From: a virus | Lineage: Duplodnaviria > Heunggongvirae > Uroviricota > Caudoviricetes | Reading direction: 5' to 3' (one strand) | IMG/VR virus record: IMGVR_UViG_638341086_000008 | DNA: 49,769 bases | Shown here: piece by piece, positions 131 through 42,194 of the stretch | How the letters are laid out: each line of letters opens with the position of its first letter | Numbering within the stretch: the stretch's first letter is position 1 | Notes under the pieces: model-generated | Told to the model about the DNA's origin: nothing | The model's input: only the letters and a program-made list of their open reading frames with translations | Database searches by the model: none | Program-made: the position numbers and the translations under genes

Positions 131-189
131 CTGAAAGTAACCGGCTCATTTAAACCGTCTGGTCTGTTTCCTCCGGCTCTACAAAAATA

Positions 190-867
190 ATGTCCATCAT
201 TTTTAATGGACACTATCGTATGAAACACCGGACCTGGATCACTGAAGCTTTACGTCTTCACTTTGAAGAACATTTACCCCGGGTTGTGGCCGGGCGTCGC
301 CTGAGTGTACCAAAATCAACAGTTTGTAGTATGTTCGTGCGCTTTCGGAGAGCTGGCCTTTCGTGGCCTTTGCCCGCAGGCATGTCGGAGCAGGAACTTG
401 ATGCCTGCCTTTACGGACAATTTTCCACGGTACCAGTCGTACGTCCTGAAAGCACCGTTATATCCGAAGCCCCCGTGGTAAAAAAACGTCCCCGGCGGCC
501 CAACTTCCCTTATGAGTTTAAAATCGCCTTAGTGGAGCAGTCACTACAGCCCGGAGCCTGTGTGGCGCAGATCGCCCGGGAAAACGGAATCAACGATAAC
601 CTGCTCTTCAACTGGCGCCATCAATACCGGAAAGGTGGCCTGCTGCCTTCCGGAAAAAATATGCCGGCACTGCTTCCCGTGACGTTAACGCCGGAGCCGG
701 ATAATAAAATCCCGGCCCCCGCACAGGAACCAGAGCAGATAAATACACCGTCCGACAGTCTGTGTTGTGAGCTGGTTCTGCCGGCCGGAACTCTCAGGCT
801 TAAAGGTAAACTGACGCCGGCGTTATTACAGACACTTATCCGCGAAATAAAAGGGAGCAGCCACTGA
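190..867 (+). CDS. tnpA: IS66-family accessory protein TnpA with an unusual ~95 aa N-terminal extension
   Basis: C-terminal half (PNFPYEFKIALVEQSLQPGACVAQIARENGINDNLLFNWR) matches the HTH of the other two IS66 TnpA copies in this window; the N-terminal part (..RAGLSWPLPAGMSEQELDACLYG) resembles an IstA-like HTH region. Confidence 0.7.
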   Translation: MSIIFNGHYRMKHRTWITEALRLHFEEHLPRVVAGRRLSVPKSTVCSMFVRFRRAGLSWPLPAGMSEQELDACLYGQFSTVPVVRPESTVISEAPVVKKRPRRPNFPYEFKIALVEQSLQPGACVAQIARENGINDNLLFNWRHQYRKGGLLPSGKNMPALLPVTLTPEPDNKIPAPAQEPEQINTPSDSLCCELVLPAGTLRLKGKLTPALLQTLIREIKGSSH

Positions 868-1214
868 TGATATCTCTCCCTGCAGGTTCGCGTATCTGGC
901 TGGTTGCAGGTATCACCGATATGCGAAATGGCTTTAACGGCCTGGCATCAAAAGTTCAGAACGTCCTGAAGGATGACCCGTTCTCCGGACACCTGTTCAT
1001 CTTCCGCGGACGCCGGGGTGACCAGATAAAAGTGTTGTGGGCTGACAGTGACGGACTGTGCCTCTTCACCAAACGCCAGGAGCGGGGCCGCTTCGTCTGG
1101 CCAGTCACCCGTGACGGCAAGGTGCACCTTACTCCGGCTCAGTTATCCATGCTTCTTGAAGGTATCAACTGGAAGCACCCGAAACGAACGGAACGCGCTG
1201 GAATCCGCATATAA
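867..1214 (+). CDS. tnpB: IS66-family TnpB (Orf2)
   Basis: 115 aa; ATGA overlap with tnpA; motif LVAGITDMRNGFNGLA...LFIFRGRRGD...LCLF conserved with the two other copies in the window. Confidence 0.85.
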   Translation: MISLPAGSRIWLVAGITDMRNGFNGLASKVQNVLKDDPFSGHLFIFRGRRGDQIKVLWADSDGLCLFTKRQERGRFVWPVTRDGKVHLTPAQLSMLLEGINWKHPKRTERAGIRI

Positions 1215-1233
1215 CCCGTTGTAAAGTGAGGAT

Positions 1234-2805
1234 ATGGACACCTCACTTGCTCATGAGAACGCCCGCCTGCGGGCACTGTTGCAGACGCAACAGGACACCA
1301 TCCGCCAGATGGCTGAATACAACCGCCTGCTCTCACAGCGGGTGGCGGCTTATGCTTCCGAAATCAACCGGCTGAAGGCGCTGGTTGCGAAACTGCAACG
1401 TATGCAGTTCGGTAAAAGCTCAGAAAAACTTCGTGCAAAAACCGAACGGCAGATACAGGAAGCACAGGAGCGAATCAGCGCACTTCAGGAAGAAATGGCG
1501 GAAACGCTGGGTGAGCAATATGACCCGGTACTGCCATCCGCCCTGCGCCAGTCTTCAGCCCGTAAACCGTTACCGGCCTCACTTCCCCGTGAAACCCGGG
1601 TTATCCGGCCGGAAGAGGAATGCTGTCCTGCCTGTGGTGGTGAACTCAGTTCTCTGGGATGTGATGTGTCAGAGCAACTGGAGCTTATCAGCAGCGCCTT
1701 TAAGGTTATCGAAACACAACGTCCGAAACAGGCCTGTTGCCGGTGCGACCATATCGTGCAGGCACCAGTACCTTCAAAACCCATTGCACGCAGTTATGCC
1801 GGAGCGGGGCTTCTGGCCCATGTTGTCACCGGGAAATATGCAGACCATCTGCCGTTATACCGCCAGTCAGAAATATACCGTCGTCAGGGAGTGGAGCTGA
1901 GCCGTGCCACACTGGGGCGCTGGACAGGTGCTGTTGCTGAACTGCTGGAGCCGCTGTATGACGTCCTGCGCCAGTATGTGCTGATGCCCGGTAAAGTCCA
2001 TGCTGATGATATCCCCGTCCCGGTCCAGGAGCCGGGCAGCGGTAAAACCCGGACAGCCCGGCTGTGGGTCTACGTCCGTGATGACCGTAACGCCGGTTCA
2101 CAGATGCCCCCGGCGGTCTGGTTCGCGTACAGTCCGGACCGGAAAGGTATCCATCCACAAAATCACCTGGCCGGTTACAGCGGTGTGCTTCAGGCCGATG
2201 CTTACGGTGGTTACCGGGCGTTATACGAATCCGGCAGAATAACGGAAGCCGCGTGTATGGCTCATGCCCGGAGAAAAATCCACGATGTGCATGCAAGAGC
2301 GCCCACCTACATCACCACGGAAGCCCTGCAGCGTATCGGTGAACTGTATGCCATCGAGGCAGAGGTCCGGGGCTGTTCAGCAGAACAGCGTCTGGCGGCA
2401 AGAAAAGCCAGAGCCGCGCCACTGATGCAGTCACTGTATGACTGGATACAGCAACAGATGAAAACACTGTCGCGTCACTCAGATACGGCAAAAGCGTTCG
2501 CATACCTGCTGAAACAGTGGGATGCACTGAACGTGTACTGCAGTAATGGCTGGGTGGAAATCGACAACAACATCGCAGAGAACGCCTTACGGGGAGTGGC
2601 CGTAGGCCGGAAAAACTGGATGTTCGCGGGTTCCGACAGCGGTGGTGAACATGCGGCGGTGTTGTACTCGCTGATCGGCACATGCCGTCTGAACAATGTG
2701 GAGCCAGAAAAGTGGCTGCGTTACGTCATTGAACATATCCAGGACTGGCCGGCAAACCGGGTACGCGATCTGTTGCCCTGGAAAGTTGATCTGAGCTCTC
2801 AGTAA
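1234..2805 (+). CDS. tnpC: IS66-family transposase TnpC (intact, 523 aa)
   Basis: N-terminal leucine-zipper-like region, CxxC...CxxC zinc-finger motifs, DDE-type core; full length with no frameshift, unlike copies 2 and 3. Confidence 0.85.
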
Positions 2806-2831
2806 ATATCAATACGGTTCTGACGAGTCGC

Positions 2832-4022
2832 TTACACCTGAAATACCATTTGCGCATCTGCATGGCCCATCTGGTTTGCTATAAATGCCGGGTTAGCACC
2901 AGCTGTCAGCGACCAGCAGGCATAAGTATGTCTCGACTGATATGATTTTCGATGGCGGAGTCCGGCACGTTTTATCGCTGCGTCCCACATCTGCCTTATT
3001 GAGTCAACGGTAAAATGGTCACCATAATTTTTTACTCTCGCTGACACTTCAGGTTGAAAAACAAAGGTGCATTTTTGTTTTTCTGTTCTGCCATACTCTC
3101 TGAGGTGAACATCAATGATATGCTCTTTGCTCAGTCTCGTTAATGTCATCTGACTCCGGAGAGCGTCGATTGCTGGCTTAATAAGATGAATGACCCGATT
3201 GGTTCCCGCCTGTGTTTTTGGTACCGTGAAACGGTCTTTTGCTAAATTTCTCCTGATCATCATTGTTCCATTTTTCAGATCTATGTCCTCCCATCCAAGT
3301 GCACACAGCTCACCAGGGCGAACGCCAGTATAAACAGAAACACACCATAAATTTTTTGCTTGCTGATTTCTGCACGCATCGATAAGACGGATAAATTCCT
3401 CCCGCGCAAGAGGATCCGGAATGGTTCTTGATTCCTTTAATGGCGAGATCCCCTTAAACGGATTATCTGCCAGGTAACCGTTATCAACACCAAACTGGAA
3501 CACGGCGTTAAGATTTGTCATGTAATTATTTACAGTTACAGCCGTTCTCCCTGGTTGTGTAACAATATAGTTACTTTTGGGGATCTGGTATCCAGTCAGT
3601 AGCTCTTTACGAACCTCCAGTAATTTTTCTTTATTAATCGATGAGGCAAGATTTTTTTCACCGATTATGCTCAGGATATTTTTGATGACGGCACGGTATG
3701 TGTTGAGTGATGTTTTGGCGACTTCAGTTTCTTTCAGTGCCAGAAATTTTTCAGCCAGTTCTTTTATGGTTAAATCTTGTCGGGCCTCACCAAATTTTTC
3801 CAGATTGCGTGAGGAGGGAAACTGTTTTGCATAGTCGAAAACACCAGTTTTTATTGCGTAACAAACAGAGGAGCGTAGTTCACCTGCAACGCGCCTGTTT
3901 TTTGCTGTGTCAGGAACCCCCAGATTTTCCCTGACTCTTACGCCTTTATAAACAAACCAGATACGTAATTTCCCTCCATGGTTTTCCACGCCTGTCGGAT
4001 ATTTCATTTCAACTTCTCTCAT
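2832..4022 (-). pseudogene. int: Prophage tyrosine integrase, truncated at the C-terminus by IS66 insertion (stop codon supplied by the IS terminus)
   Basis: 396-aa ORF with integrase boxes (..RHTYACWSL.., ..MGHADAQMVFQV) ends at a TAA lying inside the IS end (2832..2834); native int sequence starts at 2836; the catalytic Tyr codon lies in the displaced fragment at 20..130. Confidence 0.8.
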
Positions 4023-9694: not shown

Positions 9695-9978
9695 GCTATA
9701 TTAAAGCTTTAATTTCAGGCCCCATCGGATCACACATGGAGAGTTTTTATGAATAACCCCGTCTGTCTTGATGACTGGTTGATTGGCTTTAAAAGCTTAT
9801 GCTGTACTTTGGCCGTAATAGCTCTGCTAATAATATAATAAGCAGACTCATTGTGTTTAGGGACATTGTACTGGAAGAAAACATTTTAAACATCAGGCAA
9901 ATAACCAAGTCACCAGCTAAATAATAAGTTAACAGACATGAGTCCCGGGATGAGATTCAACATTACCATTGCCCCATT

Positions 9979-10009
9979 TAAAGCACAAAACCCGCTCATC
10001 AGCGGGTTT
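9979..10009 (-). terminator. tR'-like intrinsic terminator just downstream of the late promoter (possibly bidirectional)
   Basis: Hairpin AAAACCCGC-tcatca-GCGGGTTTT followed by a T-rich tract on the minus strand; sits about 40 nt downstream of the predicted promoter, as lambda tR' follows pR'. Confidence 0.55.
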
Positions 10010-10055
10010 TCTACTTTTTCTTAACGTCGGGTATACAAAGCCCATCGTTGAAAAA

Positions 10056-10084
10056 ATTTTATCCATATTTTTTGAAAAATGCAA
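10056..10084 (-). promoter_or_regulatory. Candidate Q-dependent late promoter (pR'-like): TTGCAT - 17 bp - TAAAAT
   Basis: Sigma70-like -35/-10 with 17-bp spacer, immediately downstream of the antiterminator Q gene and upstream of the hairpin at 9979..10009. Confidence 0.5.
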
Positions 10085-10115
10085 ACATCATGTCGCCATC
10101 TTCAGCAAAAATCAT

Positions 10116-10868: not shown

Positions 10869-10881
10869 GCTCGTTCTCCAC

Positions 10882-11931: not shown

Positions 11932-11932
11932 G

Positions 11933-12211
11933 TTACCTCCAGATCCGTTGCTGGAAAGTGCGGGACGCACGTGGTGGGCGTTCGGAATAAGGCAGCCTGA
12001 CAGAGATTATCCAGTGCCGATAGTCGAGACTGAGAGCTTTCTTAACCTCGAACCCGCGCCTGCGGTAAGAATGAATCAGCCATTCGGCCTGTTCTGCAGT
12101 GCATGGAGGGTGCTGGAACCATTCAGACTTGAATGCGTGAGAATACCGCCCGTGCGTGCAGGCAAGAACGGGCGAATTATCAGAATTGTAATATTTTGCG
12201 TTGCGTGCCAT
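11933..12211 (-). CDS. Hypothetical phage protein (92 aa) immediately upstream of ydfU
   Basis: ORF with GGAG 8 nt upstream of the ATG; stop abuts the proposed ydfU start; no function assignable. Confidence 0.45.
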   Translation of the reverse strand: MARNAKYYNSDNSPVLACTHGRYSHAFKSEWFQHPPCTAEQAEWLIHSYRRRGFEVKKALSLDYRHWIISVRLPYSERPPRASRTFQQRIWR

Positions 12212-12277
12212 CGGTTTTCTCCGGTGGCACGGTGTTACTCAGCGGGAGTTCAGCCCCGCGCAAGATTGTAGATGAGT

Positions 12278-12529
12278 TTATTCTCCTGAAAAAGCAGAAA
12301 AGCCAGCTTTTATTCCGATCTCTTTCAATGCCTGTAATGAAGTGACAAACTCACCTTCGCGCAAGATAAATCCGTCCGTGACCCGAGCATCCACAAAATT
12401 AATTAACGCAGCCCCATTCTTTCGCAAACACATAATGCGGTAATGACTAACAAGATTTCCATTTTCAACGCACACAGCATAGAGGCCATCTTCACAAAAA
12501 ATTTTACGCAGTTCTTCGATGTTCATCAT
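12278..12529 (-). CDS. rem: Rem-like small prophage protein
   Basis: 83 aa, MMNIEELRKIFCEDGLYAVCVENGN...; position between ydfU and hokD as in Qin. Confidence 0.65.
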   Translation of the reverse strand: MMNIEELRKIFCEDGLYAVCVENGNLVSHYRIMCLRKNGAALINFVDARVTDGFILREGEFVTSLQALKEIGIKAGFSAFSGE

Positions 12530-12640
12530 CAGAATCCTTCCGGATAATTAGCTCTCCCCTTTAAGGGACCATCCCTCTTATCCCTGCGCGCTACTTAAGT
12601 ATTTTTGATTCTATTCCGGCACCGTCCAGAACTTCAAACG

Positions 12641-12677
12641 CGTTGAAAATAAAAACAAAAACCCGCCGAAGCGGGTT
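12641..12677 (-). terminator. Rho-independent terminator downstream of the relB-relE-hokD operon
   Basis: Hairpin AACCCGC-cgaa-GCGGGTT followed on the minus strand by TTTTTGTTTTTATTTTC. Confidence 0.6.
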
Positions 12678-12745
12678 AAGTGCGGGTGCGTTGAGGATGC
12701 CTGCCACATCAGAGGTGGCGAGGGATTTCTCCCCCGCCGGGTCTC

Positions 12746-12901
12746 TTACTCCTCAGGTTCGTAAGCTGTGAAGACAGCGACCTCCGTCTGGCCGGTTCGG
12801 ATTCGTACCTCGCAGAGGTCTTTCCTCGTTACCAGTGCCGTCACTATGACGGTTAAACAGATGACGATCAGGGCGATTAACATCGCCTTTTGCTGCTTCA
12901 T
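12746..12901 (-). CDS. hokD: Hok-family membrane toxin (HokD/RelF-like), 51 aa
   Basis: Manual translation gives MKQQKAMLIALIVICLTVIVTALVTRKDLCEVRIRTGQTEVAVFTAYEPEE; absent from the ORF track because it is under 60 aa; a spurious plus-strand ORF (12768..12989) overlaps it. Confidence 0.85.
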   Translation of the reverse strand: MKQQKAMLIALIVICLTVIVTALVTRKDLCEVRIRTGQTEVAVFTAYEPEE

Positions 12902-12972
12902 AGCCTGCTTCTCCTGTCAACGCAAAGCAGAAGTGTCACCTTCGGTGCGAAACAGAGATGTCATGCTTTGGT

Positions 12973-13260
12973 TCAGAGAATGCGTTTGACCGCCTCGCTA
13001 TATACTTCCGAGCGTTCTCTTTTCCCAACAGAAATCACGAAAACGACAACTTTCTCGTCTATAACCTGGTATACAAGGCGATAGCCTGAAGACCGGAGCT
13101 TAATCTTGTAACAATCAGGCATACCACGGAGCTTGTTTGCTTCAATCCGGGGTGACTCAAGTACTTCAACCAGCTTCTTTTTCAACTGTTCACGTACCGT
13201 CGAGCCCAGCTTTCGCCATTCCTTTAGTGCCCGCTCGTCAAAATCCAGAAAATACGCCAT
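12973..13260 (-). CDS. relE: RelE mRNA interferase toxin
   Basis: 95 aa, MAYFLDFDERALKEWRKL...; ATGA overlap with relB (shared position 13260). Confidence 0.9.
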   Translation of the reverse strand: MAYFLDFDERALKEWRKLGSTVREQLKKKLVEVLESPRIEANKLRGMPDCYKIKLRSSGYRLVYQVIDEKVVVFVISVGKRERSEVYSEAVKRIL

Positions 13261-13499
13261 CAGAGTTCATCCAGCGTCACACGTACTGGCTTAGGATTAC
13301 GAAGCCGTTCTTTCACTATCTCCACAAGTTCAGCATCTTCATCACTCAGGAGTGTCTGTTTGAACGGCAAGCGTTCATTGTCAGCGATATACTCGAGCAT
13401 GAGACGAAGCGCTTCAGAAGGAGTTACACCCATTTTTTCAAGCGCGGCGTAAGAACGCGCTTTAAGTTCATCGTCAATACGCAGGTTAATGCTACCCAT
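13260..13499 (-). CDS. relB: RelB antitoxin
   Basis: 79 aa, MGSINLRIDDELKARSYAALEKMGVTPSEALR...; RHH-type antitoxin upstream of relE. Confidence 0.9.
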   Translation of the reverse strand: MGSINLRIDDELKARSYAALEKMGVTPSEALRLMLEYIADNERLPFKQTLLSDEDAELVEIVKERLRNPKPVRVTLDEL

Positions 13500-13510
13500 G
13501 TCTTACACCT

Positions 13511-13536
13511 CTTGTAATTACAAATGTCATTACAAG
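13511..13536 (-). promoter_or_regulatory. relO-like operator: inverted TTGTAAT repeats (CTTGTAATTACAAATGTCATTACAAG) immediately upstream of relB
   Basis: Palindromic hexad repeats within 12-40 bp of the relB start codon, typical of the RelB/RelE autoregulated operator. Confidence 0.55.
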
Positions 13537-13829
13537 TATCGCACTACAACATGCTTAGGGCAAGTCACGAAGGAAGTCAGAAAGTAGTCGTAAGAACGGT
13601 GATCACTGTCCGCTTTGTGCCAGGAGCAGCCATTGCTAAGTCCATCCTGTATTGTGCAGGTCAGCTCGTTTTTAAAGAGTCCGGCCATCATCTTACTGGT
13701 ACAGACACCATATACTTTGTGACGGTCAGGCTACATATGCACAACTCAACTTATTCATCTATTTTTTGCTTTAGCATGTCAGTGTTGCTTTCTCGTCGGC
13801 GGGTGAGCGGTGACCTGACCTGTCGATAA
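13524..13829 (+). CDS. Hypothetical 101-aa ORF divergent from relB (possibly ydfV-like)
   Basis: Open reading frame only; start codon lies inside the relO palindrome; no recognisable motif. Kept at low confidence. Confidence 0.25.
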   Translation: MSLQVSHYNMLRASHEGSQKVVVRTVITVRFVPGAAIAKSILYCAGQLVFKESGHHLTGTDTIYFVTVRLHMHNSTYSSIFCFSMSVLLSRRRVSGDLTCR

Positions 13830-14101
13830 AGGAACGTAGCACGTTTTATGCAACACCCGCATGCGGCAGAAAATTATTGCCGAACGTTTACCCCTGTCAA
13901 CAAGCTTTACTTTCTGAGGCGCGCCAGCCCGCGAGGAAAACAATCTGAACATCAAACAATTAATGACACAAGAAATACGATTAAAGATTTTTTTGTGCAT
14001 GCCGATAGTGCTTTTTGTAAGCGTAAACTGACCGCCGTATGTAGCCATCAGACGAGAATTGGTAACTTAGACGCCCATCTGATATAGACGGACATCTAAG
14101 T

Positions 14102-14527
14102 ATGGAATTACAGGACTGGCGAAAAGAACCTCGTAAAAACTATTCGAATGAATTCAAACTTCGTATGGTGGAACTGGCATCACAACCTGGAGCTTGTGTT
14201 GCACAGATTGCACGTGAAAATGGCGTCAATGATAATGTTATTTTCAAATGGCTCAGGCTCTGGCAGAACGAAGGGCGTGTTTCGCGGCGTCTTCCGGTAA
14301 CGACCTCTTCTGACACTGGCGTTGAATTATTACCTGTAGAAATAACGCCGGATGAGCAGAAAGAACCTGTGGCGGCCATTGCGCCGTCTTTATCCACTTC
14401 CACTCAGACCAGAGTCAGTGCCAGTTCCTGCAAGGTGGAATTCCGTCACGGTAACATGACGCTGGAAAATCCATCGCCAGAGCTGCTCACAGTGTTGATC
14501 CGTGAACTGACCGGGAGGGGAAGATGA
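14102..14527 (+). CDS. tnpA: IS66-family TnpA (copy 2)
   Basis: 141 aa; HTH region ASQPGACVAQIARENGVNDNVIFKWLR. Confidence 0.8.
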   Translation: MELQDWRKEPRKNYSNEFKLRMVELASQPGACVAQIARENGVNDNVIFKWLRLWQNEGRVSRRLPVTTSSDTGVELLPVEITPDEQKEPVAAIAPSLSTSTQTRVSASSCKVEFRHGNMTLENPSPELLTVLIRELTGRGR

Positions 14528-14874
14528 TCTCACTCCCATCAGGTACCCGTATCTGGCTCGTTGCCGGCGTTACCGATATGCGTAAATCCTTCAACGGACT
14601 GGGAGAACAGGTACAACATGTGCTGAATGATAATCCCTTCTCCGGTCACCTGTTTATCTTCCGTGGCCGACGGGGTGACACCGTCAAAATTCTTTGGGCT
14701 GATGCTGATGGTCTGTGCCTGTTCACCAAACGCCTGGAGGAAGGCCAGTTTATCTGGCCTGCGGTACGTGACGGCAAGGTATCCATTACCCGCTCGCAAC
14801 TGGCAATGCTCCTCGATAAGCTGGACTGGCGTCAGCCAAAAACATCCAGCCGTAACTCACTGACAATGTTGTAA
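14524..14874 (+). CDS. tnpB: IS66-family TnpB (copy 2)
   Basis: 116 aa; MISLPSGTRIWLVAGVTDMRKSFNGL... conserved with the other copies; ATGA overlap with tnpA. Confidence 0.85.
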   Translation: MISLPSGTRIWLVAGVTDMRKSFNGLGEQVQHVLNDNPFSGHLFIFRGRRGDTVKILWADADGLCLFTKRLEEGQFIWPAVRDGKVSITRSQLAMLLDKLDWRQPKTSSRNSLTML

Positions 14875-14904
14875 AAAACTCCTGACCGCATTATAAAAAC
14901 GGTC

Positions 14905-16517
14905 ATGAGTCAGAAATACCTCATTCGCATCGCAGAGCTGGAAAGGTTGCTCTCTGAGCAGGCTGAAGCCCTCCGTCAGAAAGACCAGCAACTGAGTCTG
15001 GTTGAAGAGACGGAAGCCTTCCTGCGCTCTGCACTGACACGTGCCGAAGAAAAGATCGAAGAAGATGAACGGGAAATAGAACATCTGCGGGCTCAGATAG
15101 AAAAACTGCGCCGGATGCTGTTCGGTACCCGTTCTGAAAAACTGCGTCGTGAAGTTGAACTGGCTGAGGCTCTGCTGAAACAACGTGAACAGGACAGCGA
15201 TCGTTACAGTGGGCGGGAAGACGATCCTCAGGTTCCCCGCCAGTTGCGACAGTCGCGCCATCGTCGTCCGTTACCGGCACACCTTCCCCGTGAAATACAC
15301 CGCCTGGAGCCAGAAGAAAGCTGTTGCCCGGAGTGTGGCGGTGAGCTGGATTATCTGGGGGAAGTCAGCGCTGAACAGCTGGAACTGGTGAGCAGTGCCC
15401 TGAAAGTGATCCGCACAGAACGGGTAAAAAAAGCCTGTACAAAATGTGACTGTATTGTTGAAGCACCGGCGCCGTCCCGCCCGATAGAGCGTGGTATCGC
15501 GGGCCCCGGATTACTTGCCCGCGTGTTAACGGGAAAATACTGCGAACATCTGCCACTGTATCGTCAGAGTGAAATCTTTGCCCGCCAGGGTGTCGAACTG
15601 AGCCGGGCCTTACTCTCCAACTGGGTTGACGCGTGCTGCCAGTTAATGACACCGGTGATGATGCCCTGTACCGTTATGTAATGAACACCCGCAAGGTTCA
15701 CACTGATGACACACCGGTAAAGGTACTGGCACCGGGTCAGAAAAAGGCGAAAACAGGGCGTATCTGGACGTATGTCCGGGATGATCGCAATGTGGGTTCG
15801 TCATCTCCTCCAGCGGTCTGGTTCGCGTACTCGCCGAACCGGCAGGGGAAACACCCGGAGCAACACCTCCGCCCCTTCCGGGGTATCCTGCAGGCGGATG
15901 CGTTCACAGGTTACGACAGGTTGTTCAGTGCAGAACGTGAAGGTGGTGCACTGACAGAAGTTGCGTGCTGGGCCCATGCCCGGCGAAAAATCCACGATGT
16001 ATACATCAGCAGCAAAAGTGCGACGGCAGAAGAAGCCCTGAAGCGAATCAGTGAACTGTACGCCATCGAGGATGAAATACGGGGATTACCGGAGTTAGAG
16101 CGTCTTGCCGTCAGGCAGCAGCGAAGCAAAGTGTTACTGACGTCGCTGCATGAATGGATGGTGGAGAAGAATGGTACGCTGTCGAAAAAATCCAGACTGG
16201 GCGAAGCGTTCAGCTATGTACTGAATCAGTGGGATGCCCTCTGTTATTACAGTGATGACGGTCTGGCGGAGGCGGATAATAATGCTGCGGAAAGAGCGCT
16301 TCGTGCAGTCTGTCTCGGAAAGAAAAACTTTATGTTCTTTGGCAGCGATCACGGCGGCGAGCGTGGAGCACTGTTGTACGGGCTGATCGGCACCTGCCGT
16401 CTGAACGGTATCGATCCGGAAGCGTATCTGCGCCATATCCTGAGCGTACTGCCGGAATGGCCTTCCAACCGAGTTGATGAACTCCTGCCATGGAACGTAG
16501 TACTCACCAATAAATAA
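14905..16517 (+). pseudogene. tnpC: IS66-family transposase TnpC (copy 2), interrupted by a frameshift near 15633..15681
   Basis: Two overlapping ORFs (14905..15681 and 15633..16517) together cover the full TnpC alignment seen in copy 1; the frame changes where copy 1 reads ..[14 protein letters not shown]... Confidence 0.75.
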
Positions 16518-16570
16518 GCGTCAATACGGTGCTCCGTTGACGCTTACTGCTTTTTTAAAAGGAGAAATCT

Positions 16571-16799
16571 ATGTCTGTCACAATTCAGGGAAATACCTCA
16601 ACCGTTATTTCAAACAACTCCGCCCCGGAAGGAACATCAGAAATAGCCAAAATCACAAGACAAATTCAGGTGCTGACTGAAAAGCTTGGGAAAATCTCAT
16701 CGGAAGAGGGGATGACGACACAGCAGAAAAAAGAAATGGCTGCATTGGTACAGAAGCAAATTGAAAGCCTCAGGGCTCAACTGGAGCAGTTGTTAAGGC
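16571..16799 (+). pseudogene. flxA: flxA-like gene truncated at its 3' end by IS629 copy 2
   Basis: ORF begins MSVTIQGNTSTVISNNSAPEG...; from codon 77 onward the reading frame runs into the IS629 terminal repeat (16800). Confidence 0.6.
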
Positions 16800-16841
16800 T
16801 GAACCGCCCCGGGTTTCCTGGAGAGTATTTTATCTGTGAAC

Positions 16842-17729
16842 TCAGGCTGCCAGATCATCGTTTCCGATGGAAGCATAATAAGCTTTTTCTGCTTCTGCCG
16901 GAGGAGTATGGCCCAGCCTTTCCAGCAATCGTCGATTGTTATACCAGTCCACCCACGTGAGTGTGGCCAGTTCCACTTCTGCACGGTTTTTCCAGCTCTT
17001 ACGGTGTATTACCTCCGCTTTGTAAAGACCATTGATGCTCTCCGCCATCGCGTTGTCATACGAGTCGCCTGTACTTCCTGTTGATGCCAGTAATCCGGCT
17101 TCCTTAAGCCGCTGTGTGTAGGCCAGCGATACATACTGAGAACCTTTATCACTGTGATGGACCGTGCCGGACGGTCGACGGGCCCATAACGCCTGCTCCA
17201 GTGCATCCAGCACGAATGTCGTCTCCATGGACGATGAGACCCGCCACCCCACAATGTATCCGGCAAACACATCAATGATGAACGCCACATAGACGAAGCC
17301 CTGCCATGTGCTGACGTAAGTAAAATCAGCCACCCACAGCTGGTCAGGTCGTTCTGCCACGAACTGACGGTTTACGCGGTCGCCTGCGGCAACGGCTTTC
17401 CGGCTGATGGTCGTACGGACCTTTTTACCCCGGAGAACACCGGCAAGTCCCATAACCGCCATGAGACGTGCCACAGTGCATCTGGCCACTCTGATACCTT
17501 CCCGTAACAACTGACGCCAGACTTTACGCACACCGTATACCTTGTGATTTTCATCGTATACGCGCTGTATCTCTTTCTTCAGCCAGTCATCGCGCTGCGC
17601 ACGGGCACTGCGTTTATCCGGATGATGTCGCTGTTGCTGACAGTGGTAATACGTTGACGGGGCAATATGCAGTTCACTGCATACCGGTCCGACCCCGCAC
17701 TGCTCACGCAGCTTATCCAGCAGTGGCAT
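16842..17729 (-). CDS. IS629 OrfB (copy 2)
   Basis: Protein identical to 7473..8360. Confidence 0.9.
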   Translation of the reverse strand: MPLLDKLREQCGVGPVCSELHIAPSTYYHCQQQRHHPDKRSARAQRDDWLKKEIQRVYDENHKVYGVRKVWRQLLREGIRVARCTVARLMAVMGLAGVLRGKKVRTTISRKAVAAGDRVNRQFVAERPDQLWVADFTYVSTWQGFVYVAFIIDVFAGYIVGWRVSSSMETTFVLDALEQALWARRPSGTVHHSDKGSQYVSLAYTQRLKEAGLLASTGSTGDSYDNAMAESINGLYKAEVIHRKSWKNRAEVELATLTWVDWYNNRRLLERLGHTPPAEAEKAYYASIGNDDLAA

Positions 17730-18055
17730 TATTTTTTCCAGAGGCGGTCGAACTCCGCCTTCGCAAAATAAGCGGAAGCCTGGCGAAGGATATCGTTACT
17801 GCGGCGCAGTTCACGATTTTCACGCTCCAGCTCTTTCAGACGCTGACGTTCAGCGGTGGTGAGCCCTCCATCACCGCCCCCGGTATCCCGCTCATGCTGG
17901 CGAACCCAGACACGCAGAGTCTCCGGCGTACAGCCAATCTTTGGAGCAATGGAACAAATTGTCGCCCATTGTGAGTCATATTCGCCCTGACTTTCCAGAA
18001 CCATACGGACTGCCCGTTGACGGACTTCAGGGGAAAAACGAGTATTTTTAGTCAT
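17729..18055 (-). CDS. IS629 OrfA (copy 2)
   Basis: Protein identical to 7147..7473. Confidence 0.9.
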
Positions 18056-18645
18056 CCTGTTTACCTCTTTCTCAGGAAGTTTAGTCTCCAGGATTCCCGG
18101 GGCGGTTCACGCTGCCGTCAGAGGCAAAACAACCAAAACCGCCGAAGGAATGCTCACCAACATGCTCGGAGATATTGCAGCAGAAGCTCAGCTTTATGCT
18201 GAAATTGCTGACGAACGCTACATCGCAGGAGTGACTTGTCAACAGATCTATGAATCTTTAAGAGATAAAAAGCATCAAATGTAGGGTAATATTAAATCGG
18301 AACATTTACATCGCGGAATGTAAAATTTGAATAAAAAGGACTCTTCCATGAGCCAAAATTCCTGAAATCTTAAGGGTAAGATAAAAGGTCTTAATCAGAA
18401 TGACACGTTTTATTAATAAATAAAGCTATTCTTTCATTGCTGTGTTTTTCTTTACAAAAGTAATCCTTGCTATGGGTGGTTAATCATGCGTTAATGGTGT
18501 TCTGGTTTGTTACAAATTTATCTGAAGCAGTCATTGTTATAATTTTATTATTTGTACCTCTTGAGATTTCCTTGTTGGTTTTTCTCTCTGATATTTTTTT
18601 CGGACCATTCTGCCCAAGGGCTAATTTCTTCAAAAGGTAATAATT

Positions 18646-34272: not shown

Positions 34273-34971
34273 ATGCAGGATATTCCACAGGAAACACATC
34301 ATGAGACGACACGCCTCACTCAGTCAGCCCAGGTGGTGCTCTGGGAAATCGATCTGACAGTGGTCGGTGGAGAACGTTATTTTTTCTGTAATGAGCAGAA
34401 CGATAAAGGTGAGCCGGTCACCTGGCAGGGGCGACAGTATCAGGCGTATCCCATTCAGGGGACGGGATTTGAACTGAACGGCAAAGGCAGTGCTGCCCGT
34501 CCGACACTGACGGTTTCTAACCTGCACGGCATGGTCACCGGGATGGCGGAAGACCTGCAGAGTCTGGTCGGAGGAACGGTGGTCCGGCGTAAGGTTTACG
34601 CCCGTTTTCTGGATGCGGTGAACTTCGTCAACGGAAACAGTGACGCCGATCCGGAGCAGGAGGTGATCAGCCGCTGGCGCATTGAGCAGTGCAGCGAACT
34701 GAGCGCGGTGAGTGCCTCTTTTGTACTGTCCACGCCGACGGAAACGGACGGCGCTGTTTTTCCGGGACGTATCATGCTGGCCAACACCTGCACCTGGACC
34801 TATCGCGGCGATGAGTGCGGTTATCACGGTCCGGCGGTCGCGGATGAATATGACCAGCCAACGTCCGATATCACGAAGGATAAATGCAGCAAATGCCTGA
34901 GCGGTTGTAAGTTCCGCAATAACGTCGGCAACTTTGGCGGCTTCCTTTCCATTAACAAACTTTCGCAGTGA
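34273..34971 (+). CDS. Minor tail protein L
   Basis: 232 aa with C-terminal Cys cluster (CGYHG...CSKCLSGC), as in lambda gpL. Confidence 0.8.
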   Translation: MQDIPQETHHETTRLTQSAQVVLWEIDLTVVGGERYFFCNEQNDKGEPVTWQGRQYQAYPIQGTGFELNGKGSAARPTLTVSNLHGMVTGMAEDLQSLVGGTVVRRKVYARFLDAVNFVNGNSDADPEQEVISRWRIEQCSELSAVSASFVLSTPTETDGAVFPGRIMLANTCTWTYRGDECGYHGPAVADEYDQPTSDITKDKCSKCLSGCKFRNNVGNFGGFLSINKLSQ

Positions 34972-34976
34972 ATCCC

Positions 34977-35075
34977 ATGACAGAGACAGAATCAGCGATT
35001 CTGGCGCACGCCCGGCGATGTGCGCCAGCAGAGTCGTGCGGCTTCGTGGTGAGAACACCGGAGGGGGAAAGATAT
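34977..35075 (+). pseudogene. Tail assembly protein K, 5' fragment (33 codons) upstream of the IS66 insertion
   Basis: MTETESAILAHARRCAPAESCGFVVRTPEGERY, then the IS end GTAAGCG at 35076; reading frame resumes at 37537. Confidence 0.8.
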
Positions 35076-35112
35076 GTAAGCGTGCAGCAAGAACCGTATT
35101 GACGGGGATGTG

Positions 35113-36650
35113 TTATTCAGTCGGCAGTGCTACGCGCCAGGGGAGCAGTTCGCCGACCCGGTTTATCGGCCAGTCGGCTATGACGTCAAGGACATAGCGG
35201 AGGTAGCTTTCTGGCTCCACTCCGTTCAGTTTGCACGTCCCGATCAGGCTGTACAGCAGCGCTCCCCGCTCTCCTCCATGATCCGAACCGAAGAACAGGT
35301 AGTTTTTGCGGCCCAGACTGACCATCCGCAACGCATTTTCAGCGATGTTATTGTCCGCCTCAGCCCAGCCATCATCTGCATAGTACGTCAGCGCCGGCCA
35401 CTGGTTCAGGGCGTATGCGAACGCTTTCGCCAGTTCTGAGTGTCGCGACAGGGTTTTCATCTTTTCACGCAGCCAGCTTTCCAGGGATTTCAGCAGCGGT
35501 TTCGTTTTCAACTGACGTTCGGCAAGGCGCTGCTCCGCCGTCATTCCCCTTATCTCTGCCTCGATGGCGTACAGTTCGCCGATCCGTTTCAGCGCTTCCT
35601 CCGTCAGGGCTGACGGGGTGCGAACGTGCACATCGTGGATTTTACGGCGGGCGTGAGCCCAACAGGCGGCTTCCGTTATCCGGCCATCCCGGTACAGCTC
35701 GTTGAACCCGGCGTATGCATCCGCCTGCAGTACACCACTGAACCCCGCAAGATGGGTCTGCGGATGGATGCCTTTTCTGTCCGGGCTGTAAGCGAACCAC
35801 ACCGCCGGCGCCAGCGTTGACCCGGCGTTACGGTCGTCACGAACGTAGGTCCATAACCGCCCGGTCTTCGTTTTCTTATTGCCTGGCAACAGCACCGGGA
35901 CAGGCGTGTCATCAGCATGGAGCTTACCGTCAGTCAGCACATAGTCCTGAAGCGCTTCTTCCAGCGGTGACAGTAGCCGGCAGCATGCATCCACCCAGCC
36001 CGACAGCAGTGAACGACTCAGCTCCACGCCCTGGCGGCCGTACATTTCAGACTGGCGGTACAGCGGGGTGTGCTCTGCATACTTTGAGATCAGCACGCGG
36101 GCCAGCAGCCCCGGTCCTGCGATACCCCGCTCGATGGGCCGTGAAGGCGCGGGGGCTGCACGATGGCATCGCACTGAGTACAGGCATGCTTTTCACGTAC
36201 AGTCCGGATAACCCGGAAGGCGCTGCGCATCAGCTCCAGCTGTTCGGCGGCATCCTCACCCAGATAGCTCAGCGAGCCTCCACATTCCGGGCAGCATGAC
36301 GCTGCCGGCAGCAGCCGTTTTTCATCGCGGGGGAGTGATTCGGGGAACGGTTTGCGGGTGCGGGTTTGACGCAGCGGGCGCTGCACGGCCGGGTCGTCAA
36401 CCCGACCGGTAAGGGTATCACTTTCTTTCTGAAGTGCCTTCAGGTCAGCTTCCATCGGTGCGATACGACGGGAGACTTTTTCCGAGCGGCTGCCGAAGTT
36501 CATCCGGCGCAGCTTATCCAGCTGTGCCTGCAGATGGTCTATTTCGCGTTCACGCTCGTTCAGCTTTTCCTGCAGGGCACGGTTCAGCGCCTCCTGTTCG
36601 GCAAGGAGACGTTTCAGTGCATTGATATCGTCAGGAAGTGAGCTGCTCAT
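35113..36650 (-). pseudogene. tnpC: IS66-family transposase TnpC (copy 3), frameshifted near 36090..36174
   Basis: Two overlapping minus-strand ORFs (36090..36650 and 35113..36174) together span the TnpC alignment. Confidence 0.75.
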
Positions 36651-36698
36651 ACCGGGTATATTACCAGGCTCATTCAGCGTCGACCAGGATAAAGAGGC

Positions 36699-37046
36699 TT
36701 ACAACATAGTCAGGGACGTAAGCAGTCTTTTAGGCTGCCGCCAGTCGATACCTTCCAGCAGCATCGCCAGCTGTGCCGGTGTGAGGAACACTTTGCCATC
36801 CCGGGCTGACGGCCAGGCGAAGCGGCCGCGCTCCAGCCGTTTGGTCAGCAGACACAGTCCATCGCCGGTAGACCAGAGGAGCTTTACCTGACTGCCATTA
36901 CGCCCACGGAAGATAAAAACGTGACCTGACATCGGATCGTCTTTCAGCGTCGTCTGCACCTTTGCCGCCAGGCCGTTGAAGCCGTTTCTCATATCGGTGA
37001 TGCCAGCGACCAGCCAGATCTTTGTCCCTGATGGTAATGGGATCAA
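36699..37046 (-). CDS. tnpB: IS66-family TnpB (copy 3)
   Basis: 115 aa, MIPLPSGTKIWLVAGITDMRNGFNGL.... Confidence 0.85.
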   Translation of the reverse strand: MIPLPSGTKIWLVAGITDMRNGFNGLAAKVQTTLKDDPMSGHVFIFRGRNGSQVKLLWSTGDGLCLLTKRLERGRFAWPSARDGKVFLTPAQLAMLLEGIDWRQPKRLLTSLTML

Positions 37047-37447
37047 CGTTTGAGCTCCCGTATCAGCAGGTTCAGGATATTTTCGCTGATGGCACCATTC
37101 AGACGGAGTGATCCGTGCCGGAACGTCACTTCACAGCTGATATTGAGTGATTCAGGTGTCGCAGCAGCTACAGGTTGTGACCGGGGGGAGGTTGTAGGGA
37201 CAACATCTTCGGCATCAAGTGTTATCGGGAGCAGCTCAGGCACGTTGTTTTCTGTTGTTGAAGGAGGACGTAGTTTTCCTTCGCGCCAGTACTGGCGCCA
37301 CTTGAACAGCAAATTATCGTTGATCCCATGCTCACGAGCGAGTTGCGCTACGGAGATCTCTGGTCGATGCGAGAGTTCAACCATTTTGATTTTGAACTCA
37401 ACGGGATAATTAGGGCTTTTTTTACGCACTGCGGTTAATGATTTCAT
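37043..37447 (-). CDS. tnpA: IS66-family TnpA (copy 3)
   Basis: 134 aa, ..YPVEFKIKMVELSHRPEISVAQLAREHGINDNLLFKWR.. Confidence 0.8.
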   Translation of the reverse strand: MKSLTAVRKKSPNYPVEFKIKMVELSHRPEISVAQLAREHGINDNLLFKWRQYWREGKLRPPSTTENNVPELLPITLDAEDVVPTTSPRSQPVAAATPESLNISCEVTFRHGSLRLNGAISENILNLLIRELKR

Positions 37448-37536
37448 GGATAGCGTCCACCATATTTGGTGTCCACTATTCTCTCAGGAATTTCAGGATC
37501 TGCCAGACGGTGCTGAGACGACGCTTACAAAGATAT

Positions 37537-38181
37537 TTTCCCTGCGTGAATATCTCCGGTGAGCCGGAGGCGTATTTCCGGATGTCGCCGGAGGACTGGC
37601 TGCGGGCAGAGATGCAGGGTGAGATTGTGGCGCTGGTCCACAGCCACCCCGGTGGTCTGCCCTGGCTGAGTGAGACCGACCGGCGGCTGCAGGTGCAGAG
37701 TGATTTGCCGTGGTGGCTGGTTTGCCGGGGGGCGATTCACAAGTTCCGCTGTGTGCCACATCTTTCCGGGCGGCGCTTTGAGCACGGGGTGACGGACTGT
37801 TACACGCTGTTCCGGGATGCTTACCATCTGGCGGGGATTGAGATGCCGGATTTTCATCGCGAGGATGACTGGTGGCGTCACGGTCAGAATCTCTATCTGG
37901 ATAATCTGGAGGCCACAGGGCTGTATCAGGTGCCGTTGTCAGCGGCGCAGCCGGGCGATGTGCTGCTGTGCTGTTTTGGTTCATCGGTGCCGAATCATGC
38001 CGCCATTTACTGTGGTGACGGCGAGCTGCTGCACCATATTCCTGAACAACTGAGCAAACGAGAGAGGTATACCGACAAATGGCAGCGACGCACACACTCC
38101 CTCTGGCGTCACCAGGCATGGCACGCATCTGCCTTTACGGGGATTTGCAACGATTTGGCCGCCGCATCGATCTGCGTGTGA
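37537..38181 (+). pseudogene. Tail assembly protein K, 3' fragment (NlpC/P60-like and JAB/MPN-like region)
   Basis: Frame resumes ..FPCVNISGEPEAYFRMSPEDW...HSHPGG...; joined to 34977..35075 it restores a continuous ORF across the target-site duplication. Confidence 0.8.
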
Positions 38182-38720
38182 AAACGGGGGCCGAAGCCAT
38201 CCGGGCGCTGGCCATGCAGATCCCGGCGTTTCGTCAGAAGCTGAGCGACGGCTGGTATCAGGTACGCATTGCCGGGCGTGATACAGGTGAAACGGAATTA
38301 TCAGCCCGTCTTAATGAACCGCTGGCAAATGGTGCTGTGATCCATATCGTGCCGCGTCTGGCAGGAGCCAAAAGTGGCGGTGTGTTTCAGGCTGTGCTGG
38401 GGGCGGCTGTTATGGCGGTTGCTATATGGATGCCGGGGGTAGGAATTATGGCGAGTAATCTGCTGTTTTCTCTCGGTGCCAGTATGACGCTTGGCGGTGT
38501 TGCACAGATGCTGGCCCCTAAACCCAAAACCCCCCGCACACAGACAACGGATAACGGCAAACAGAACACCTATTTCTCCTCACTGGATAACATGGTTGCC
38601 CAGGGCAATGTTCTGCCCGTTCTGTACGGTGAAATGCGCGTGGGGTCACGCGTGGTTTCTCAGGAGATCAGCACGGCAGACGAAGGGGATGGTGGTCAGG
38701 TTGTGGTGATTGGTCGTTGA
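38079..38720 (+). CDS. Tail assembly protein I
   Basis: 213 aa, MAATHTLPLASPGMARICLYGDLQRFG..., ubiquitin-like N-terminus; overlaps the end of K as in lambda. Confidence 0.8.
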   Translation: MAATHTLPLASPGMARICLYGDLQRFGRRIDLRVKTGAEAIRALAMQIPAFRQKLSDGWYQVRIAGRDTGETELSARLNEPLANGAVIHIVPRLAGAKSGGVFQAVLGAAVMAVAIWMPGVGIMASNLLFSLGASMTLGGVAQMLAPKPKTPRTQTTDNGKQNTYFSSLDNMVAQGNVLPVLYGEMRVGSRVVSQEISTADEGDGGQVVVIGR

Positions 38721-38780: not shown

Positions 38781-41700
38781 ATGGGTAAAGGCAGCAGTAA
38801 GGGGCATACCCCGCGCGAAGCGAAGGACAACCTGAAATCATCCCAGATGCTGAGCGTGATAGACGCCATCAGTGAAGGGCCGATTGAAGGTCCGGTGGAT
38901 GGATTAAAAAGCGTGCTGCTGAACAGTACGCCAGTGCTGGACAGTGAGGGGAATACCAACATCTCCGGCGTCACGGTGGTGTTCCGGGCCGGTGAGCAGG
39001 AGCAGACACCGCCGGAGGGATTTGAATCCTCCGGCTCCGAGACGGTGCTCGGTACGGAAGTGAAATACGACACGCCGATCACCCGGACCATCACGTCGGC
39101 AAACATTGACCGACTGCGTTTTACCTTCGGCGTGCAGGCACTGGTGGAAACCACCTCAAAGGGGGACAGGAATCCATCGGAAGTCCGCCTGCTGGTTCAG
39201 ATACAACGTAACGGTGGCTGGGTGACGGAAAAAGACATCACCATTAAGGGTAAAACCACTTCACAGTATCTGGCCTCGGTGGTGGTGGATAACCTGCCGC
39301 CGCGCCCGTTCAGTATCCGGATGCGCAGGATGACGCCGGACAGCACCACAGACCAGCTGCAGAACAAAACGCTCTGGTCGTCATACACCGAAATTATCGA
39401 TGTGAAACAGTGCTACCCGAACACGGCACTGGTCGGCGTGCAGGTGGACTCGGAGCAGTTCGGCAGCCAGCAGGTGAGCCGTAATTATCATCTGCGCGGG
39501 CGTATTCTGCAGGTGCCGTCGAATTATAACCCGCAGACGCGGCAATACAGCGGTATCTGGGACGGAACGTTTAAACCGGCATACAGCAACAACATGGCCT
39601 GGTGTCTGTGGGATATGCTGACCCATCCGCGCTACGGCATGGGGAAACGTCTTGGTGCGGCGGATGTGGATAAATGGGCGCTGTATGTCATCGGCCAGTA
39701 CTGCGACCAGTCAGTGCCGGACGGCTTTGGCGGCACGGAGCCGCGCATCACCTGTAATGCGTATCTGACCACACAGCGCAAGGCGTGGGATGTGCTCAGT
39801 GATTTCTGCTCGGCGATGCGCTGTATGCCGGTATGGAACGGGCAGACGCTGACGTTCGTGCAGGACCGGCCATCAGATAAGGTGTGGACCTATAACCGCA
39901 GTAATGTGGTGATGCCGGATGATGGCGCGCCGTTCCGCTACAGCTTCAGCGCCCTGAAGGACCGCCATAATGCCGTTGAGGTGAACTGGATTGACCCGGA
40001 CAACGGCTGGGAGACGGCGACAGAGCTTGTTGAAGATACGCAGGCCATTGCCCGTTACGGTCGTAACGTCACGAAGATGGATGCCTTTGGCTGTACCAGC
40101 CGGGGGCAGGCACACCGCGCCGGGCTGTGGCTGATTAAAACGGAACTGCTGGAAACGCAGACCGTGGACTTCAGCGTGGGTGCTGAAGGGCTTCGCCATG
40201 TACCGGGCGATGTCATTGAAATCTGCGATGATGACTATGCCGGTATCAGCATCGGCGGGCGCGTGCTGGCGGTGAACAGCCAGACCCGGACGCTGACGCT
40301 CGACCGTGAAATCACGCTGCTATCCTCCGGCACCACGCTGATAAGCCTGGTTGACGGGCAGGGGAGTCCGGTGAGCGTGGAGGTCCAGTCCGTCACTGAC
40401 GGCGTGAAGGTGAAAGTGAGCCGTGTTCCTGACGGCGTTGCCGAATACAGCGTGTGGGGACTGAAGCTGCCGACGCTGCGCCAGCGCCTGTTCCGCTGCG
40501 TGAGTATCCGTGAGAACGACGACGGCACGTATGCCATCACTGCCGTGCAGCATGTACCGGAGAAAGAGGCCATCGTGGATAACGGGGCGCACTTTGACGG
40601 CGACCAGAGCGGCACGGTGAATGGTGTCACGCCGCCAGCGGTGCAGCACCTGACTGCCGAAGTCACCGCAGACAGCGGGGAGTATCAGGTGCTGGCACGC
40701 TGGGATACGCCGAAGGTGGTGAAGGGCGTGAGCTTTATGCTTCGCCTGACCGTGGTAGCGGATGACGGCAGTGAGCGGCTGGTCAGCACGGCCCGGACGG
40801 CGGAAACCACATACCGCTTCACGCAGCTGGCGCCAGGGAACTACAGGCTGACAGTCCGGGCGGTAAATGCCCGGGGGCAGCAGGGCGATCCGGCATCGGT
40901 ATCGTTCCGGATTGCCGCACCTGCAGTGCCGTCGCGGATTGAGCTGACGCCGGGCTATTTTCAGATAACCGCCACGCCGCATCTTGCCGTTTATGACCCG
41001 ACGGTACAGTTTGAGTTCTGGTTCTCGGAAAAGCGGATTACCGATATCAGGCAGGTTGAAACAACAGCCCGCTATCTTGGTACGGCGCTGTACTGGATAG
41101 CCGCCAGTATCAATATCAAACCGGGCCATGATTATTACTTTTATATCCGCAGTGTGAACACCGTTGGCAAATCGGCATTCGTGGAGGCCGTCGGTCGGGC
41201 GAGCGATGATGCGGAAGGTTACCTGGATTTTTTCAAAGGCAAGATAACCGAATCCCATCTCGGCAAGGAGCTGCTGGAAAAAGTTGATCTGACGGAGGAT
41301 AACGCCAGCAGACTGGATGAGTTTTCGAAAGAGTGGAAGGACGCTAACGATAAATGGAATGCCATGTGGGGCGTCAAAATTGAGCAGACCAAAGACGGCA
41401 AACATTATGTCGCGGGTATTGGCCTCAGCATGGAGGACACGGAGGAAGGCAAGCTGAGCCAGTTTCTGGTTGCCGCTAACCGTATCGCGTTTATTGACCC
41501 GGCAAACGGGAATGAAACGCCGATGTTTGTGGCGCAGGGCAACCAGATATTCATGAACGACGTGTTCCTGAAGCGCCTGACAGCCCCGACCATTACCAGT
41601 GGTGGAAATCCACCGGCATTTTCCCTGACATCAGACGGAAAGCTGACCGCTAAAAATGCGGATATCAGTGGCAGTGTGAATGCGAACGCCGGGACGCTCA

Positions 41701-42194
41701 ACAATGTCACGGTAAATGAAAACTGTACGATTAAGGGCATGCTGGAGGCGACTCAGGTCAGAGGTGACTTCGTTAAAGCTGTATCCAAATCATTCCCGAA
41801 ACAGGCTGGTACGTGGGGTAATACGGAAACACCAAACGGGACGGTTACAGTCACCATCAGCGATGATCATAACTTTGACCGTCAAATCATTATTCCGCCC
41901 ATTATCTTTAACGGAATAGCGTATAGCGATCCGGGAAGTGGTAATAACCCGGGAGGTACAAGATACACGGGTTATGGTTTTGAAGTTCGCAAAAACGGTG
42001 TATTAATCGCATCCAGAGAAACTAAAGGGGCCATTCCCGGTAGTTACAGTGCAGTTATTGATATGCCGAGTGGTGGTGGTAGCGTCACTCTGGAGTTTAA
42101 GATTTTCCAGAAAGGCAATCAGGGGGCAGGCAATATCACCGACTGTACGGTGATTGTGACCAAAAAAGCCGCTTCCGGCATCAGTATTCGTTGA
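38781..42194 (+). CDS. Tail tip / host-specificity protein J
   Basis: 1137 aa, [20 protein letters not shown]...; fibronectin-III-like central repeats; a distinct C-terminal ~150 aa that I take to be the receptor-binding region. Confidence 0.9.

Follow-up and report, generated by a model that had tools for sequence, protein, structure and literature searches.

The window, by which we mean the whole 49,769-nucleotide stretch of DNA that was analysed, contains a prophage tail operon in the order H-M-L-K-I-J, an order that holds in the open reading frame (ORF) map and in the annotations of Escherichia coli F8704-2 and phage mEp460. Within this operon the tail-tip assembly gene K is split in two by an insertion sequence (IS). 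The features at and around the break are as follows.

34977..35075, plus strand: K 5' fragment of the tail-tip assembly gene, codons 1-33, with the JAB-motif Glu in AESCGF
35068..35075, unstranded: left copy of the 8-bp target-site duplication AAAGATAT, K nt 92-99
35076..37528, minus strand: ISEc22 (IS66 family), 2453 bp, its genes antisense to the tail operon
37529..37536, unstranded: right copy of the target-site duplication AAAGATAT
37537..38181, plus strand: K 3' fragment, codons 34-247, with the metal-binding JAB part (HSHPGG...SETD) and the entire NlpC/P60 domain
37438..38181, plus strand: chance chimeric ORF of 247 aa, whose ATG lies inside the IS end in frame with the K 3' fragment
38145..38720, plus strand: tail assembly gene I, intact, overlapping the K 3' end
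38781..42194, plus strand: tail gene J, downstream of I

Direct reading of the sequence places the K start at the ATG at 34977, from which the frame reads MTETESAILAHARRCAPAESCGFVVRTPEGERY (MTETES...PEGERY) up to 35075. The gene resumes in frame at 37537 with FPCVNISGEPE and stops at 38181, and the insertion point therefore lies after codon 33, between codons 33 and 34. A first-pass annotation had proposed that K is split at 35075/37537 by an IS66-family element occupying 35076..37528; these coordinates are exact, and the element is ISEc22. Beyond the junction, the 5' fragment runs for eight codons into the IS (VSVQQEPY) and ends at a stop at 35100-35102 (ORF 34968..35102). When 34977-35075 and 37537-38181 are joined, they form 744 nt, comprising 247 codons and a stop with no internal stops; with the IS and one copy of the repeat taken out, a gap-free K protein of 247 aa is recovered.

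The joined product is the continuous K-like protein that the first-pass annotation had expected, and it aligns without gaps to intact K proteins, including those of mEp460 and E. coli strain 190. A tblastn search matched 1760 phage records (in 1722 of them one place spans 80% or more of the protein), and the best phage match is the K protein of mEp460, at 97.6% over residues 1-247. More broadly, the intact K proteins of mEp460 and numerous E. coli prophages are 97-98% identical to the joined K, and its close phage relatives carry the label 'tail tip assembly protein K'. Two Pfam domains are recognized, Prok-JAB (PF14464) at residues 4-98 (2.2e-14) and NLPC_P60 (PF00877) at residues 111-224 (5.9e-13), and the alignment places the JAB/MPN motif E...HxH...S..D at E19, H68, H70, S78 and D81. 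In domain composition, and in its location between L and I/J, the window K resembles gpK of phage lambda and the lambdoid tail tip assembly protein K (C40 family peptidase in RefSeq). The lambdoid protein is uninterrupted, whereas the window K is broken after codon 33, and the IS separates the JAB catalytic Glu (AESCGF) from the His/Asp ligands (HSHPGG...SETD) and from the peptidase domain.

In phage lambda, gpK is needed for tail assembly, yet it is not found in virions (PMC12617516, PMC10721106). Because gpK is required in lambda, the window prophage would, by analogy with lambda genetics, be unable to make tails. The chimeric ORF at 37438..38181 could in principle yield a K protein with a replaced N-terminus, and the equivalent ORF in strain 64.1 has been called as a CDS by PGAP. 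An exact look-up of the chimeric product in the protein collection gave no record. Across the IS, a promoter scan found no sigma-70-like sites, and terminator-like sites were no commoner than in shuffled sequences, with no sign of a polar block. Outward transcription of the K 3' fragment thus receives no support from the promoter and terminator scan across the IS.

The inserted element has all of the sequence-readable features that define the IS66 family. From the left end to the right end, its parts are the following.

35076..35101, unstranded: terminal inverted repeat at the tnpC end, GTAAGCGT..AG.ACCGT.T.G, an imperfect match to the other end
35113..36155, minus strand: tnpC downstream part, reference codons 166-512, with DDE_Tnp_IS66 and the IS66 C-terminal element (ORF 36174..35113)
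36090..36650, minus strand: tnpC upstream ORF, 186 aa, with leucine zipper and zf-IS66, matching TnpC to codon 165 and then continuing for 21 out-of-frame codons
36699..37046, minus strand: tnpB, IS66 Orf2-like (PF05717), with a 4-nt overlap with the tnpA stop
37043..37447, minus strand: tnpA, HTH_Tnp_1 accessory protein
37503..37528, unstranded: terminal inverted repeat at the tnpA end, ending ...ACGCTTAC

The left IS end opens with GTAAGCGTGCAGC (GTAAGCG) at 35076 and the right end closes with ...GACGCTTAC (CGCTTAC) at 37528; both ends start with GTAAGCGT, beyond which matching positions continue as far as about position 26. The Pfam domains found in the IS are HTH_Tnp_1, TnpB_IS66, LZ_Tnp_IS66, zf-IS66, DDE_Tnp_IS66 and DDE_Tnp_IS66_C. 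The perfect 8-bp direct repeat previously noted around the element is exact on both sides, and the AAAGATAT 8-mer occurs only five times in the window, two of the copies abutting the IS termini exactly. A staggered 8-bp cut-and-fill is typical of the IS66 family. Over its full length, the window IS is 99.9% identical to copies annotated as 'IS66-like element ISEc22', all of which are 2454 bp long. Copies of ISEc22 at 99% identity or more occur in 1071 records, and some match to the element is present in 4006 of 5426 complete E. coli genomes; the eight other copies that we examined each have an 8-bp duplication of their own. The window copy and RefSeq ISEc22 have in common the tnpA-tnpB-tnpC order, the GTAAGCG termini and the 8-bp duplication. 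They differ in length (2453 versus 2454 bp), in a tnpC frameshift at codon 166 of the window copy and in one SNP (Q65P).

Alleles of this site that lack the IS are widespread. The empty-site query was the 1199-nt sequence joined in silico, searched against 5426 complete E. coli genomes. Matches extend over 1199 bp in one unbroken piece, with identity reaching 99.6%, and 4332 of these genomes have a place that covers 80% or more of the query. The uninterrupted site is also found in functional phages, among them Kati, PhiR34_1, 434 and mEp460. IS-free alleles, which the first-pass annotation had suggested seeking in related strains, are accordingly available from both E. coli genomes and phages, with K uninterrupted. 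In these empty alleles AAAGATAT is single-copy, from which it follows that a single copy was present before the insertion.

Among the 5426 genomes, an identical left junction (100%) was found only in E. coli O39:NM F8704-2 (NZ_CP050998.1). In this genome the IS lies at 214333-216786, the duplication is AAAGATAT, tnpC is intact (WP_000099202.1), and RefSeq marks both K fragments as pseudogenes. The K::ISEc22 allele of F8704-2 has the same insertion point, orientation and duplication as that in the window; the allele is therefore already known, being annotated in a public sister genome. Positions 18110-49769 of the window (31.6 kb) are 99.975% identical to F8704-2, with six SNPs and two 1-bp deletions. 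Upstream of the late genes the two differ in arrangement, and F8704-2, unlike the window, has an intact tnpC, a Q gene co-oriented with the late genes, and both essD and rrrQ. Given the near-identity over 31.6 kb, the K insertion is common by descent to the window and F8704-2, and hence to at least two genomes. It is young, as the IS is near consensus and the duplication perfect, and the tnpC frameshift is either a later change or an error.

These junctions also bear on whether the IS was misplaced by assembly, through a collapsed or misjoined repeat, with K actually intact. IS elements are classic misassembly points, and the window has other IS-bounded rearrangements relative to F8704-2. Against this, the K junctions are clean and carry an exact 8-bp duplication that is single-copy in the empty alleles, and the same junctions are found in an independent complete assembly (F8704-2). 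We consider misplacement very improbable.

The frameshift reported earlier in tnpC is present in the window sequence. Relative to two 2454-bp reference copies, a single base is missing after 36155 (GGGGGCC to GGGGGC on the plus strand), and TnpC is broken at codon 166, which falls between its zinc-finger and DDE domains. When the deleted base is put back, a 512-aa TnpC is recovered with one substitution, Q65P, corresponding to the SNP at 36457, which is the sole substitution relative to the reference ISEc22 copies. Programmed frameshifting in tnpC is ruled out, as intact copies have one 512-aa ORF.

The frameshift had been taken to mean that the insertion is probably old or that the element is non-autonomous. 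An old age is not supported by the data: the IS is one SNP and one 1-bp deletion away from more than 1000 near-identical copies, the duplication is perfect, and tnpC is intact in F8704-2. On sequence grounds the insertion is recent, because the IS is near consensus and the duplication is perfect. As to autonomy, the window ISEc22 does not have an intact TnpC; if the deletion is real, the copy is defective, though still a member of the family, and 'non-autonomous' is literally true, but the pattern of indels described below also fits unpolished repeat copies. Since the insertion in F8704-2 has an intact tnpC, the frameshift either postdates the insertion or is an assembly or consensus error.

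We place just below an even chance the explanation that the frameshift is a sequencing or assembly artefact and that the ISEc22 copy is truly intact and autonomous. The sole other genome with the K insertion, F8704-2, has tnpC intact at the same place. In addition, the window departs from its nearest relatives by three 1-bp indels, and each of these is the loss of one base from a short run: at 36155 CC has become C, at 15657 AA has become A, and at 46534 AAA has become AA. The first two fall within tnpC genes of multicopy IS66-family elements, the weakest spot for read-based polishing; these are the genes of ISEc22 and of ISEc23, whose tnpC is split by the deletion at 15657 and is intact in strain LC-1302-2020. 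An exact look-up of the truncated TnpC product in the protein collection gave no record. The pattern of deletions in runs fits residual consensus errors in unpolished repeat copies, and also real decay, with roughly even odds. Arguing for real mutation, the SNPs relative to F8704-2 and the IS3-associated rearrangements upstream of 18110 suggest that the window may derive from another strain, where genuine mutations would be expected, and frameshifted ISEc22 copies are annotated in other genomes, for example MLI106K4.

Qin marker genes occur in the window at 100% identity (partial ydfJ, ydfK, pinQ, tfaQ, cspI, gnsB, relBE, hokD, rem, ydfU and ydfT), and the right end of the prophage comprises ydfJ', ydfK, pinQ, tfaQ and stf. 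By this gene content the window prophage is of the Qin type, and it is inserted at ydfJ. Like it, the Qin cryptic prophage of E. coli K-12 lies beside ydfJ and has relBE, hokD, rem, ydfU, ydfT, cspB/F/I, gnsB, tfaQ, pinQ and ydfK, and IS-driven decay is common to both. Qin of E. coli K-12 has lost the head and tail module; set against it, the window prophage has kept a complete-looking head and tail module and contains five IS copies.

The other tail genes had been described as intact, and this is supported: the remaining head and tail ORFs (Z, U, V, G, T, H, M, L, I, J, lom, stf and tfa) are open, and the annotation of the near-identical locus in F8704-2 gives them as intact. The description of K as the sole visible lesion stands insofar as K is the only broken tail gene in the window. 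It does not extend to the prophage as a whole, which other IS events have disabled too. Features outside the tail module that bear on this are listed here.

137..2835: ISCro1, a third IS66-family element, which splits the integrase gene; duplication ACCTGAAA
10116..10868, minus strand: ydfT, the Q antiterminator gene, inverted relative to the late operon
14017..16547: ISEc23, IS66-family; duplication TGCTTTTT

Further, the window lacks essD (holin) and rrrQ (endolysin), and rzpQ (Rz) is truncated at an IS3-family element at 18110, which also truncates flxA. With its integrase gene split, Q inverted, holin and endolysin missing and Rz truncated, the window prophage is cryptic regardless of K; its decay has involved at least five IS events, of which the K hit is one.

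We consider it very likely (probability roughly 0.93) that ISEc22 inserted into K of a Qin-type prophage in a host lineage that includes F8704-2, that this insertion is recent and inherited, and that the prophage is cryptic independently of it. On this reading, ISEc22 (tnpA-tnpB-tnpC) transposed into K at codon 33/34 in an E. coli lineage including O39:NM F8704-2, and the staggered 8-bp cut-and-fill left the AAAGATAT duplication. The insertion was then passed on by descent to two or more genomes. The tnpC base was lost after the insertion, or its absence is an assembly error, and the prophage was, or became, cryptic independently of K. We found no evidence against the K insertion itself. It was most likely a selectively neutral hit in dispensable DNA, and a local preference of ISEc22 for this target may have favoured it.

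Evidence relevant to target preference comes from other insertions nearby. Searches for the K-IS junction were made in both orientations, with about 900 bp visible to them, and identified six ISEc22 insertions in the L-K region that arose independently, every one flanked by a perfect 8-bp duplication of its own.

AAAGATAT, orientation A: the window and F8704-2, at K nt 92-99
ATATCTCC, orientation A: six poultry isolates, 21 bp downstream of the AAAGATAT site
ATATATCC, orientation B: four isolates, at the same nucleotide position as the ATATCTCC site
CTCTGCAG, orientation A: seven isolates including O103:H2, 4 bp past the ATATCTCC/ATATATCC site, in a divergent K allele
GAGCAAAC, orientation B: one isolate, near K codon 207
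ACTTTGGC, orientation B: three isolates, at the 3' end of L

Four of the six insertions fall within a 25-bp stretch of K, and two of these share one nucleotide position but are oppositely oriented. The clustering has p ~0.001 against a uniform null over about 900 bp, in a test that is post hoc. This stretch of K includes the palindromes GGGAAA-N5-TTTCCC and CTCCGG-N4-CCGGAG, with CTCTGCAGAG in the other allele, and as single-stranded DNA it folds better than shuffled sequences (z = -2.99). The left flanks of ISEc22 in metagenome contigs (47 distinct) indicate a weak preference inside the duplicated 8 bp, with G at -8 and A/T-rich positions from -6 to -3; none of these 47 flanks is in K. The three distinct K targets that were compared fit this weak consensus poorly, and sequence preference alone therefore does not explain the K cluster; the fourth target, ATATATCC, is a one-base variant of one of the three. 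A scan of species-representative genomes returned no complete ISEc22 sites and mostly contig-end flanks from one draft genome. One apparent shared K flank was ruled out, as it stems from an unrelated insertion of ISEc22 into a different tail gene.

An alternative explanation for the recurrence is that K inactivation is selected, tail loss of a resident prophage being adaptive, and that K insertions recur by parallel evolution. The occurrence of six independent insertions across lineages is compatible with this, as are the ISEc22-like elements that occupy Stx2a phage tail regions and other structural genes of phages. Selection for K loss would, however, be satisfied by insertion anywhere in the 744 bp of the gene, yet four of the six events lie within the 25-bp stretch. 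This clustering, which includes the pair of insertions at one position in opposite orientations, points to target choice, and the window prophage is already non-inducible, which leaves little to select against. We regard selection as unlikely, and the tight clustering is suggestive of target choice rather than selection for K loss. That K nt ~92-124 (codons 31-42) constitutes a true ISEc22 insertion hotspot is a tentative proposal, to which we give somewhat less than an even likelihood. This apparent hotspot is the only element of the K::ISEc22 case that is new, and only mildly so.

K::ISEc22 is in itself an ordinary event, and the locus is a textbook example of a prophage structural gene knocked out by an IS, with little import beyond correct annotation. 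The case also illustrates that a frameshifted transposase in a multicopy IS is poor evidence of age unless near-identical copies and read support are considered. The recurrent hits in K could serve as a lineage marker in typing. We know of no marked target preference in the IS66 family. If the hotspot is true, an IS66-family transposase would select its targets by local DNA structure or symmetry, and the recurrent ISEc22 hits in 25 bp of K offer a natural target for studying target choice in this family.

Four independent insertions of ISEc22, an IS66-family element, fall inside 25 bp of the tail-tip assembly gene K, in different lineages of E. coli:

window 35068-35100 (K nt ~92-124), the stretch of K concerned, with the insertion in the prophage under study
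L003 3722-6175, L-K region of strain 64.1
L004 3731-6184, L-K region of another E. coli genome
L131 3422-5875, L-K region of another E. coli genome

The target-site duplications of these insertions are AAAGATAT, ATATCTCC, ATATATCC and CTCTGCAG. Two of the four occupy the same position in opposite orientations, and L and K contain two more ISEc22 insertions outside the cluster. Four insertions in 25 bp (p about 0.001, post hoc) suggest that this stretch of K is a local hotspot for ISEc22. An ISEc22-like element is also carried by the Stx2a-converting phages of O157:H7 strains 1447 (AP012536.1 40184-44285) and 980938 (AP012537.1 / NC_049941.1 41497-45598). In these phages the element occupies the I/J part of the tail assembly genes, downstream of the K site by about 1.45 kb, and is a further case of an ISEc22-like element within lambdoid tail genes.

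The tnpA-proximal end of ISEc22 holds an ATG whose reading frame continues into the 3' fragment of K (window 37438-38181). In strain 64.1, where the insertion lies 21 bp downstream, the same ATG is also in frame with that fragment (L003 6085-6807), and PGAP annotates the fusion ORF as a CDS for a C40 family peptidase. Such a fusion CDS is probably an annotation artefact and not an expressed fusion.

Two other IS66-family elements are present in the window, and the second of these splits the prophage integrase gene:

14017-16547, ISEc23, just upstream of flxA, duplication TGCTTTTT
137-2835, ISCro1, 2699 bp, duplication ACCTGAAA
20-136 and 2833-4007, minus strand, int fragments

The tnpC of ISCro1 is an open 523-aa ORF. 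Like that of ISEc22, the tnpC of ISEc23 is out of frame: compared with an intact copy in strain LC-1302-2020, it has a 1-bp deletion (AA to A at 15657) that shifts the reading frame. Another 1-base deletion (AAA to AA at 46534, relative to E. coli F8704-2) is intergenic and lies between the genes tfa and pin. Each of the three indels that separate the window from near-identical genomes is a deletion in a short base run, a pattern that fits consensus errors in the source assembly. Single-base length variants of ISEc22 recur in public assemblies, as the copy that strain MLI106K4 carries in the 3' end of its gene L (L133 4142-5681, NZ_CP117053.1) is 2455 bp long with tnpC annotated as frameshifted.

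A pair of IS3-family elements flanks an inverted block from ynfU to ydfV (window 7091-18109) that includes the Q antiterminator gene:

7091-8402 and 16800-18109, IS3-family copies, mutually inverted
10116-10868, minus strand, ydfT (Q)

Compared with F8704-2, the window is missing essD (holin), the DUF1327 gene and rrrQ (endolysin), and rzpQ is cut at 18110. This arrangement uncouples the late operon of the prophage from Q, and the prophage has lost its lysis cassette.
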